64,000 nt of DNA from a phage, in the sequence record PZ445521.1. The stretch is one strand, 5' to 3'. The position numbers were made by a program, and so were the translations under genes. A model generated the notes under the pieces. That model worked only from the letters and a program-made list of their open reading frames with translations. It was not told the DNA's origin and made no database searches. Below are positions 44,429 through 45,450 of the stretch, piece after piece; position 1 is the stretch's first letter; each line of letters begins with the position of its first letter.

Positions 44429-44504
44429 TGGTCGAGGCAGTAGGGATCGAACCTACGACCTAGGACTTAGAAGGTCCTTGCTCTTCCTTCTGAGCTATGC
44501 CCCG
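44429..44504 (-). tRNA. tRNA-Arg (anticodon UCU)
   Basis: hand-folded cloverleaf; T-arm GGTTCGATCC; anticodon loop CUUCUAA; CCA encoded. Confidence 0.85.
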
Positions 44505-44508
44505 TAAT

Positions 44509-44584
44509 TGGGGTGACCGATGGGAGTCGAACCCATGACTACGAGAATCACAATCTCGAGTTCTACCAACTGAACTACGGCCAC
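44509..44584 (-). tRNA. tRNA-His (anticodon GUG)
   Basis: hand-folded; anticodon loop UUGUGAU; discriminator C; CCA encoded. Confidence 0.8.
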
Positions 44585-44698
44585 ATTAATACCTACTCCA
44601 ACAATCAAGATGTCTTCACACGAAATTAAGAGAAGAGTGATCAGTTCAACCCCTATAATCGCGTCAAGTAGATATTAATGTGACAGTTGTCACAAATT

Positions 44699-44773
44699 TG
44701 GCGGACGTGATAGGATTCGAACCTATAACCAATCGCTTAACAGGCGATCGCTCTACCATTGAGCTACACATCC
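44699..44773 (-). tRNA. tRNA-Asn (anticodon GUU)
   Basis: hand-folded; anticodon loop CUGUUAA; CCA encoded. Confidence 0.8.
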
Positions 44774-44777
44774 AAAT

Positions 44778-44864
44778 TGGTGGGGAGTGGTGGAGTCGAA
44801 CCACCCGAGTCGCAATGACAATGAATTTACAGTCCACACCGCTACCTCTACGGGATAACTCCCC
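44778..44864 (-). tRNA. tRNA-Tyr (anticodon GUA), long variable arm
   Basis: hand-folded; acceptor GGGGAGU/ACUCCCC; anticodon loop CUGUAAA; D-arm pairing not resolved by eye. Confidence 0.7.
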
Positions 44865-44876
44865 TAATTCATAATT

Positions 44877-44951
44877 TGGTGGCCCTGGGTGGAATTGAAC
44901 CACCATCTGGCGATTATGAGTCGCTTGCTTGAACCTTCCAGCTACAGGGCC
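44877..44951 (-). tRNA. tRNA-Ile (anticodon CAU, lysidine-type)
   Basis: hand-folded; anticodon loop CUCAUAA; position as T4 tRNA-Ile. Confidence 0.75.
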
Positions 44952-44952
44952 T

Positions 44953-45028
44953 TGGTGCTGATTGACGGAATCGAACCGCCGACGTCCTCATTACAAGTGA
45001 GTTGCTCTACCTACTGAGCTAAATCAGC
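44953..45028 (-). tRNA. tRNA-Thr (anticodon UGU)
   Basis: hand-folded; anticodon loop CUUGUAA; CCA encoded. Confidence 0.85.
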
Positions 45029-45034
45029 AAAAAC

Positions 45035-45124
45035 TGGCGGAGGCGATAGGATTTGAACCTATGAGTCGCCGGAGCGACTGCCGGTTTTCAAGACCGGTGC
45101 ATTAAACCACTCTGCCACGCCTCC
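45035..45124 (-). tRNA. tRNA-Ser (anticodon UGA), long variable arm
   Basis: hand-folded; anticodon loop CUUGAAA; CCA encoded. Confidence 0.85.
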
Positions 45125-45126
45125 AG

Positions 45127-45200
45127 TCTCCATACAAGGATTTGAACCTTGGACCTCCTGATCCCAAATCAGGCGCTCTACCAAACTGAGCTACACGGAG
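45127..45200 (-). tRNA. tRNA-Pro (anticodon UGG)
   Basis: hand-folded; anticodon loop UUUGGGA; CCA not encoded. Confidence 0.8.
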
Positions 45201-45210
45201 TAAATTAAAT

Positions 45211-45284
45211 TGGAGCGGATAATGAGAATCGAACTCACATCATCAGATTGGAAGTCTGAGGTAATACCATTATACGATATCCGC
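45211..45284 (-). tRNA. tRNA-Gly (anticodon UCC)
   Basis: hand-folded; anticodon loop CUUCCAA; CCA encoded. Confidence 0.85.
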
Positions 45285-45289
45285 AAATT

Positions 45290-45376
45290 TGGTGCGAGAA
45301 GTGGGACTCGAACCCACAAGGAAATCATTCCGCAGCATTTTAAGTGCTGTGCCTTTACCAATTTGACCATTCTCGC
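45290..45376 (-). tRNA. tRNA-Leu (anticodon UAA), long variable arm
   Basis: hand-folded; anticodon loop CUUAAAA; CCA encoded. Confidence 0.85.
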
Positions 45377-45377
45377 G

Positions 45378-45450
45378 CTGGGAATAAAGGACTCGAACCT
45401 TTGCATCCTGGAATCAAAATCCAGTGCCTTACCAACTTGGCTAATTCCCA
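45378..45450 (-). tRNA. tRNA-Gln (anticodon UUG)
   Basis: hand-folded; anticodon loop UUUUGAU; 1-nt spacer to tRNA-Leu. Confidence 0.85.

Follow-up and report, generated by a model that had tools for sequence, protein, structure and literature searches.

The stretch of phage DNA analyzed here (sequence record PZ445521.1; 64,000 nucleotides [nt], read 5' to 3' on one strand and referred to as the window) contains a cluster of tRNA genes that includes genes for tRNA-Tyr and tRNA-Asn as well as tRNA-His, and this raises the question of whether these three genes serve codon supply, counter host defense systems that cleave tRNAs, or are simply there. A preliminary description of the locus, made by folding the sequence by hand, had listed 11 tRNA genes on the minus strand, regarded those for Tyr, Asn, and His as additions to a canonical T4 set of eight, and suggested that they might act in counter-defense. 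Based on the analyses described below, we consider it about 85% probable that the locus is a segB-free, 11-gene T-even tRNA operon that is transcribed polycistronically, in which tRNA-Tyr would act against the defense system Septu, tRNA-Asn would by inference contribute against the defense system PARIS, and tRNA-His is part of a cassette with its own leader.

ARAGORN called 11 tRNA genes in the window; all are minus-strand genes, and together they occupy exactly 44429 to 45450, in agreement with the hand folding in both gene content and span. In the order as transcribed, these are the genes for tRNA-Gln(UUG) (45377 to 45450), tRNA-Leu(UAA) (45290 to 45376), tRNA-Gly(UCC) (45211 to 45284), tRNA-Pro(UGG) (45126 to 45200), tRNA-Ser(UGA) (45035 to 45124), tRNA-Thr(UGU) (44953 to 45028), a tRNA with a CAU anticodon (44877 to 44951), tRNA-Tyr(GUA) (44778 to 44864), tRNA-Asn(GUU) (44699 to 44773), tRNA-His(GUG) (44509 to 44584), and tRNA-Arg(UCU) (44429 to 44504). 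The intergenic spacers measure 0 to 12 nt with a single long exception, i.e., the gap between the Asn and His genes at 44585 to 44698, which is 114 nt long, rather than 108 bp as first reported, and which contains the expected palindrome GTGACAGTTGTCAC at 44680 to 44693 (plus strand). Using the Rfam tRNA covariance model RF00005 (gathering score, 29 bits), 10 of the 11 genes, including those for Asn and His, were supported with scores of 59 to 77 bits, while the tRNA-Tyr gene, which encodes a long variable arm, was not among them. Despite the covariance model, we accept the tRNA-Tyr gene as real on the basis of the ARAGORN call and because it is base for base (87 of 87 nt) equal to that of T6; the T6 tRNA is visible on northern blots and functional in vivo (PMC13096335).

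We compared the array with those of T4, T2, and T6. The T4 array reads Gln-Leu-Gly-Pro-Ser-Thr-Ile-(segB)-Arg-rnaD-rnaC, so that the set of eight given in the preliminary description was right and Tyr, Asn, and His are indeed additional relative to T4. The array in the window reads Gln-Leu-Gly-Pro-Ser-Thr-CAU-Tyr-Asn-(114 nt)-His-Arg-(open reading frame [ORF])-rnaD-rnaC. It is a single-strand tandem array located, as in T4, between the e.x genes (e.8) and trna.2/ipI, on the same strand, with the shared genes in T4 order and with rnaC and rnaD alongside. The genes for tRNA-Leu and tRNA-Gly are identical to those of T4, T2, and T6, that for tRNA-Pro is identical to those of T4 and T2, that for tRNA-Ser is identical to that of T2 and 97% identical to that of T4, that for tRNA-Thr is 97% identical to that of T4, and that for tRNA-Gln is 89% identical to the allele of T4, T2, and T6. 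Unlike T4, the window has an ORF between the Arg gene and rnaD, and its CAU and Arg tRNAs are T2 alleles that could not be aligned to those of T4 by BLAST; the CAU tRNA differs in allele from T4 tRNA-Ile, and tRNA-Arg is unrelated in sequence to the T4/T6 allele.

A further difference from T4 concerns segB. By map comparison, the Tyr-Asn-gap-His block of the window stands where T4 has this homing endonuclease gene, and we identified no segB-like ORF in the window by tblastn. T2L, RB1, and RB3 also lack segB and carry tRNAs for Met, Tyr, and Asn, and the preferred 27-bp SegB site lies within the tRNA-Asn gene of T2L; homing of T4 segB replaces ~1,250 bp of the T2L array, including the Met, Tyr, Asn, and Arg genes (Brok-Volchanskaya et al. 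2008, PMC2330249). The T2 array (Gln-Leu-Gly-Pro-Ser-(ORF)-CAU-Tyr-Asn-Arg-(ORF)) resembles the window in lacking segB, in its alleles of the CAU tRNA (100% identity), Tyr (99%), Asn (99%), and Arg (97%), and in the ORF after Arg. It differs in that the Thr gene is missing and an ORF separates Ser from the CAU tRNA, and in that it has neither His nor the sequence preceding it in the window, Asn being followed by 4 nt and then Arg. The T6 array reads Gln-Leu-Gly-Thr-CAU-Tyr-(segB)-Arg. The tRNA-Asn genes of the window and T2 differ by one base in the D loop, and the 3' part holding the SegB site is identical. From the lack of segB and this near identity, we infer that the array in the window is a SegB-recipient allele.

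Is this array exceptional? From 44350 to 45600, the sequence matches that of Shigella phage JK38 (Tequatrovirus zeezee23) with 100% identity, and in that phage all 11 tRNAs are annotated, and 11 tRNAs are routinely given for Tequatrovirus isolates in genome papers. At least 80% of the 1,251-nt tRNA region is carried by 324 phage records, and at least 80% of the Tyr-Asn-gap-His block by 187. The Tyr allele of the window is present in 610 phage records at any identity and in 512 at an identity of at least 95%, while T4-type segB is present in 183. These numbers do not support the view of Tyr, Asn, and His as exceptional. Rather, the 11-tRNA array is the ordinary T-even tRNA operon in its common form, and T4 is the minority, segB-carrying form. 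Accordingly, taken as a whole, the cluster is not new and is annotated in hundreds of genomes.

For tRNA-Tyr, a counter-defense role has been published for the identical gene, and for the phage in question this role would follow from that identity. The nuclease of Septu Ec-B88 (PtuAB) cuts tRNA-Tyr in the variable loop, and the T6 tRNA-Tyr gene, when overexpressed or amplified in tandem by SegB, restores plating against Septu Ec-B88 (Chihara et al. 2026, PMC13096335). Because PtuAB also cuts T6 tRNA-Tyr, at C48, the rescue depends on dosage and not on resistance to cleavage; T4, which has no tRNA-Tyr gene, fails to escape Septu, while T2, with one Tyr copy and no segB, is resistant for a reason that was not established (PMC13096335). 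Similarly, the tRNA-Tyr of T5 counters retron-Eco7 (Azam et al. 2024, PMC11555353). The tRNA-Tyr of the window is 99% identical to that of T2, 85% identical to that of T5, with which it shares the variable arm unchanged, and 67% identical to that of Escherichia coli. In T6, the Tyr gene adjoins segB, which drives the tandem amplification, in contrast to the segB-free window.

The case for tRNA-Asn is indirect. The PARIS nuclease AriB targets E. coli tRNA-Lys, its primary target, as well as tRNA-Thr(UGU), also a prime target, and tRNA-Asn(GUU), a secondary one; a UAAU motif lies near the cut, and U39 of this motif is essential for cleavage of tRNA-Lys. At positions 36 to 41, tRNA-Asn of the window has UAAGCG (host, UAAUCC) and tRNA-Thr has UAAUGA (host, UAAUCA), the host sequences being those given in the preprint of Belukhina et al. 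2025. Thus, tRNA-Asn carries G39 and has no UAAU motif, and tRNA-Thr has G40 in place of host C40. Because G39 replaces U39 of the motif, resistance of this tRNA-Asn to AriB is plausible. The PARIS-evading set of T5 consists of tRNAs for Lys, Thr, and Asn (Belukhina et al. 2025 preprint); the window resembles it in having Thr(UGU) and Asn(GUU) altered at the AriB site U36-A-A-U-C-N41 and differs from it in lacking tRNA-Lys(UUU), the primary target, no tRNA-Lys gene being called by ARAGORN in the window. T4, with the same kind of tRNA-Thr, still requires the T5 tRNA-Lys to escape PARIS. For tRNA-His, we found no defense nuclease that targets it in the literature looked at. Colicin E5 cleaves the Tyr, His, Asn, and Asp tRNAs at UQU (PMC1635277), and this is a colicin rather than a phage defense system. 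Altogether, the initial suggestion of counter-defense holds for Tyr, is indirect for Asn, and finds no nuclease to attach to for His.

Could the three tRNAs merely meet the translational demand of an AT-rich proteome while host tRNA levels fall, with no link to defense? The genome has a G+C content of 35%, and A- and U-ending codons dominate in the ORFs of the window. Eight of the tRNAs (Gln, Leu, Gly, Pro, Ser, Thr, the CAU tRNA if Ile2-like, and Arg) all read A-ending codons. In AT-rich phages, tRNAs for A-ending codons have the classical function of codon supply, and these eight would serve it here. The demand for Tyr (4.66% of codons in the window ORFs) and Asn (5.93%) lies above what we take to be the E. 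coli averages (~2.8% and ~3.9%, respectively), and the dosage nature of the Tyr effect in T6 would also be in line with a supply function. However, His accounts for just 1.72% of codons, presumably less than the E. coli average, and still has a phage tRNA, whereas Lys (7.92%) and Asp (6.39%), with the largest demand, have none. Moreover, the tRNAs for Tyr, Asn, and His share the GUN type of anticodon, and each copies a host species with only one isoacceptor; because of this they cannot widen decoding but only add to or replace the existing supply. Supply alone therefore fits Tyr and Asn but not His. T4 and many relatives thrive without all three genes, and a direct defense phenotype has been published for the identical Tyr gene. 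Consequently, we regard demand without any link to defense as a rather unlikely explanation.

A second explanation is that the make-up of the array reflects the traffic of selfish elements and recombination between tRNA 3' ends, such that the presence of Tyr, Asn, and His is largely neutral. The replacement of a large part of the T2L array by SegB, which cuts within tRNA-Asn, supports such traffic, as does the observation that T4, T6, T2, and the window each carry a different subset of genes. The tRNA-His region points in the same direction. Relative to T2, the palindrome hairpin, the remainder of the gap, and tRNA-His form a clean 190-nt insertion/deletion bounded by near-identical tRNA 3' ends (CCAAAT/CCAAT), and the gap sequence with tRNA-His recurs at ~88% identity in phages of Klebsiella and Enterobacter that otherwise carry different tRNAs. 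Because of this clean indel and the sharing with phages that have different neighboring tRNAs, the unit behaves as a cassette. Yet mobility accounts for the movement of genes and not for their persistence; the Tyr allele is kept at an identity of at least 95% in ~512 records, related copies occur in unrelated phage families, and for Tyr a selective phenotype exists. We therefore think it improbable that the presence of the three genes is largely neutral, although the preferred reading of a counter-defense and supply operon itself includes the mobility of the His cassette.

What, then, does the gap contain? The preliminary description had treated it as a spacer with a palindrome. Instead, we found conservation of a 93-nt core of the gap across 356 phage records, in which a single "hypothetical protein" is the only annotation under it. 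The homologues belong to Tequatrovirus (95 to 100% identity), Karamvirus, Jiaodavirus, Gelderlandvirus, and one Vequintavirinae phage. Read in the sense of the tRNAs, the ~95-nt sequence at 44585 to 44679 (minus strand), which is unannotated in all records seen, folds with z scores of −3.4 to −4.4 into a leader in which a stem of 14 bp (P1) closes off a bipartite hairpin (P2a/P2b) and a small hairpin (P3), the latter with the conserved loop UC(A/U)UGAU. In an alignment of nine distinct sequences, 95.3% of the cells are paired, compared to 33 to 50% when the partners are slid, and compensatory changes occur in 9 of the 29 pairs, compared to 0 to 3; in 500 shuffles, none reached the observed values for pairing and covariation. 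Several invariant G·U pairs would become A·C mismatches if read from the opposite strand, and for this reason the leader is an RNA feature in the tRNA sense. P2b occurs as two unrelated sequence versions, both of which pair. In nine variants, P1 comprises 14 to 15 uninterrupted pairs, of which the last uses the −1 nucleotide of tRNA-His, and its inner halves are compensated. Three divergent leaders (L250, L293, and L265) retain P1 with most of the interior replaced, and a Kanagawavirus phage retains P1 alone, in the form of a perfect 13-bp hairpin. Immediately 5' of the leader, and abutting P1, the palindrome forms a further hairpin, P0 (GUGACA-ACUG... UGUCAC; 44680 to 44693, minus strand); Gelderlandvirus shares this hairpin, with A-U replaced by G-C in a compensatory swap. 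These data show that the gap is a conserved structured RNA and not a mere spacer with a palindrome.

In searches for relatives of the leader, we scanned 44300 to 45600 against Rfam at E values of up to 1 and identified no known RNA family in the gap. A specific leader pattern returned nothing but known relatives among viral contigs and nothing but chance matches, with no model hit, among bacterial genomes; looser patterns gave mostly chance matches among the matches listed. A hammerhead ribozyme, to which CUGAUCA and GAA had pointed, was rejected, as the position of the catalytic G8 is a C and as the whole hairpin is swapped for an unrelated one in Gelderlandvirus and in the variant L038. A transposon-like element or an attC-like DNA hairpin, considered in view of the inverted arms and the variable core, was rejected based on the G·U pairs and the compensatory changes in three helices, and the promoter-stem-loop (PeSL) motifs described in the literature are not relevant to the gap. 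Kissing of the P2b loop with that of P3 is possible (type B, UCAUGA with UCAUGA; type A, UGAU with AUCA), but as the two types differ in register, it is speculation. In the Gelderlandvirus Salmonella phages STP4-a and SEA1 (701 to 830), the leader is kept and tRNA-His is lost; the leader is followed by the first four His bases (GTGG), unrelated sequence, and then tRNA-Asn.

That the gap instead serves as an internal promoter or terminator or is the remnant of a tRNA gene is highly improbable: it does lie at about the boundary of the two T4 tRNA subclusters, holds a TTGACG hexamer and the palindrome, and is near the length of a tRNA plus spacers, but a consensus scan identified no minus-strand promoter or terminator in it, the hexamer is not conserved (TTCAACG in Jiaodavirus), a decayed tRNA was rejected since neither ARAGORN nor Rfam gave a tRNA-like match and only three helices are present, and these helices are kept by compensatory changes and contain invariant G·U pairs.

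The tRNA-His gene that follows the leader is itself noncanonical. It is 80% identical to E. coli hisR and has C73 and an encoded CCA, and at position −1 it has a T where hisR has the canonical G opposite C73, a G that is nearly universal in bacteria; G−1 is the major identity element for HisRS (PMC9976931). Among 37 distinct tRNA-His genes sampled from viral contigs and reference loci, 10 have T at −1, and all 10 lie in the large tRNA arrays of virulent phages of the enterobacterial type, T5 included, while other phage arrays keep G−1. T5 offers a parallel for the leader as well. In its GenBank record (NC_005859, features T5t07 and T5s01), a 106-nt RNA III, annotated as "stable RNA with unknown functions," directly precedes tRNA-His, which is annotated with the U at −1, and the terminal helix of this RNA reaches as far as that U. 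Thus, both phages have a structured RNA of ~100 nt directly 5' of tRNA-His with a terminal helix of 12 to 13 bp reaching −1, and in both, tRNA-His has U−1 and C73. The internal branches differ, and the T5 record lists RNA III as a stable RNA, whereas the leader in the window is known from its sequence. In the same region of T5 (10285 to 10645), RNA I ends with GCCGCCA, a tRNA-like CCA end, and the 4-nt spacer after RNA I contributes the bases through which the RNA III helix reaches the −1 U of tRNA-His; the stable RNAs and tRNA-His of T5 appear to form one tightly packed processing unit.

By analogy to T5, the leader is most likely freed as a stable RNA or acts as a processing scaffold. A more specific proposal, which we put forward tentatively and at somewhat less than even odds, is that 44509 to 44698 constitutes a previously undescribed mobile cassette of a leader and a noncanonical tRNA-His, that the leader would control maturation of this tRNA via direct stacking on its acceptor stem through U−1 and perhaps be released as an RNA, and that RNA III of T5 is of the same kind.

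The proposed working of the operon combines these elements. The array would be read from the minus strand as one or a few polycistronic transcripts that run on through the small ORF and rnaD/rnaC to a terminator-like hairpin. Host RNase P and other enzymes would release the tRNAs, and CCA would be added to tRNA-Gln and tRNA-Pro, the genes of which have no encoded CCA. As shown for the identical T6 gene, tRNA-Tyr would raise the Tyr pool enough to outrun cleavage by PtuAB, and tRNA-Asn might contribute against AriB. The His gene would have arrived or left as the 190-nt cassette of hairpin, ~95-nt leader, and tRNA, and the leader may be cut free when the tRNA 5' end is processed, persisting as a small stable RNA, or serve as a scaffold for the maturation of tRNA-His lacking G−1.

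Several points weigh against this scheme. Expression and processing of the array in this phage are deduced from sequence. The best covariance score of tRNA-Tyr, which lies outside the 10 genes supported by RF00005, was 30.9 bits on the tRNA-Sec model, i.e., below threshold. Since the anti-Septu effect in T6 required overexpression or SegB amplification, the single Tyr copy in the segB-free window may protect only partly. PARIS would still cut host tRNA-Lys, which this phage could not replace. A tRNA-His without G−1 should be a poor substrate for HisRS (PMC9976931), making its translational value uncertain. Finally, a covariance model of the T4-like leaders gave no hit on T5 RNA III, so that the parallel to T5 is architectural only.

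Three of the remaining tRNAs deserve comment. The CAU tRNA is labeled Met by ARAGORN and in GenBank, as is its T2L counterpart in the 2008 study (PMC2330249). It matches E. coli ileX at 58 of 76 positions (76%), making ileX its nearest E. coli relative, compared to 51 of 77 for metT and 48 of 77 for the initiator metV, and its anticodon stem-loop GCGACUCAUAAUCGC is identical to that of ileX. It has the pairs C4-G69 and C5-G68 within an acceptor stem starting GGCCC. These pairs together with an Ile2-type anticodon arm are what we take to be the determinants for TilS. The CAU tRNA thus seems better read as tRNA-Ile2 than as tRNA-Met, with lysidine as the predicted modification, and the resemblance to ileX lends support to the Ile(CAU) assignment made at the outset. 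In tRNA-Arg, the acceptor stem has G3·U70 together with G2-C71, G4-C69, and A73; T2 has A3-U70, and Yersinia phage ZN18 shares G3·U70. These features correspond to what we assume to be the identity set of E. coli tRNA-Ala, and a dual Arg/Ala identity is possible. In tRNA-Gln, the differences from T4, T2, and T6 all lie in the anticodon arm (CUGGA-UUUUGAU-UCCAG versus UAGCA-CUUUGAC-UGCUA), as if the arm had been swapped.

Downstream of the array, the features as far as the terminator-like hairpin lie on the minus strand. The ORF between tRNA-Arg and rnaD, at a place where T4 has none, encodes a 115-amino acid (aa) protein (phrog_3355; 44063 to 44410). It is followed by homologues of T4 rnaD (species 2 stable RNA; 43947 to 44066; 87% identity) and T4 rnaC (species 1 stable RNA; 43802 to 43940; 98.6% identity), both unannotated in JK38. 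Just downstream of rnaC, a terminator-like hairpin of 10 bp, of which 7 are G-C, followed by a T run (43728 to 43751) probably terminates the tRNA/stable-RNA transcription unit. In the interval from rnaC to the e.8 homologue, which is noncoding in T4, there is an ORF for a 157-aa protein (phrog_2280; 43204 to 43677) with no Pfam match. Neither Pfam nor PHROGs assigned a function to the two ORFs.

Since the cluster as such is known, the leader-His cassette is its only new item, and we regard it as a modest new lead. For the T-even phages, the array in the window, with a single copy and no segB, is a ready means of asking if one tRNA-Tyr gene is enough to withstand Septu or retron-Eco7. That all three additional tRNAs belong to the GUN (queuosine) class, the target of colicin E5-type nucleases, is suggestive for the class as a whole. 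If our proposal for the cassette is correct, its RNA would govern the position of the RNase P cut or the retention of U−1, and the released RNA might act as a decoy or regulator. The cassette thereby raises the questions of how a tRNA-His lacking G−1 is matured and charged in E. coli and what purpose the stable RNAs of T5 and the T-even phages serve.

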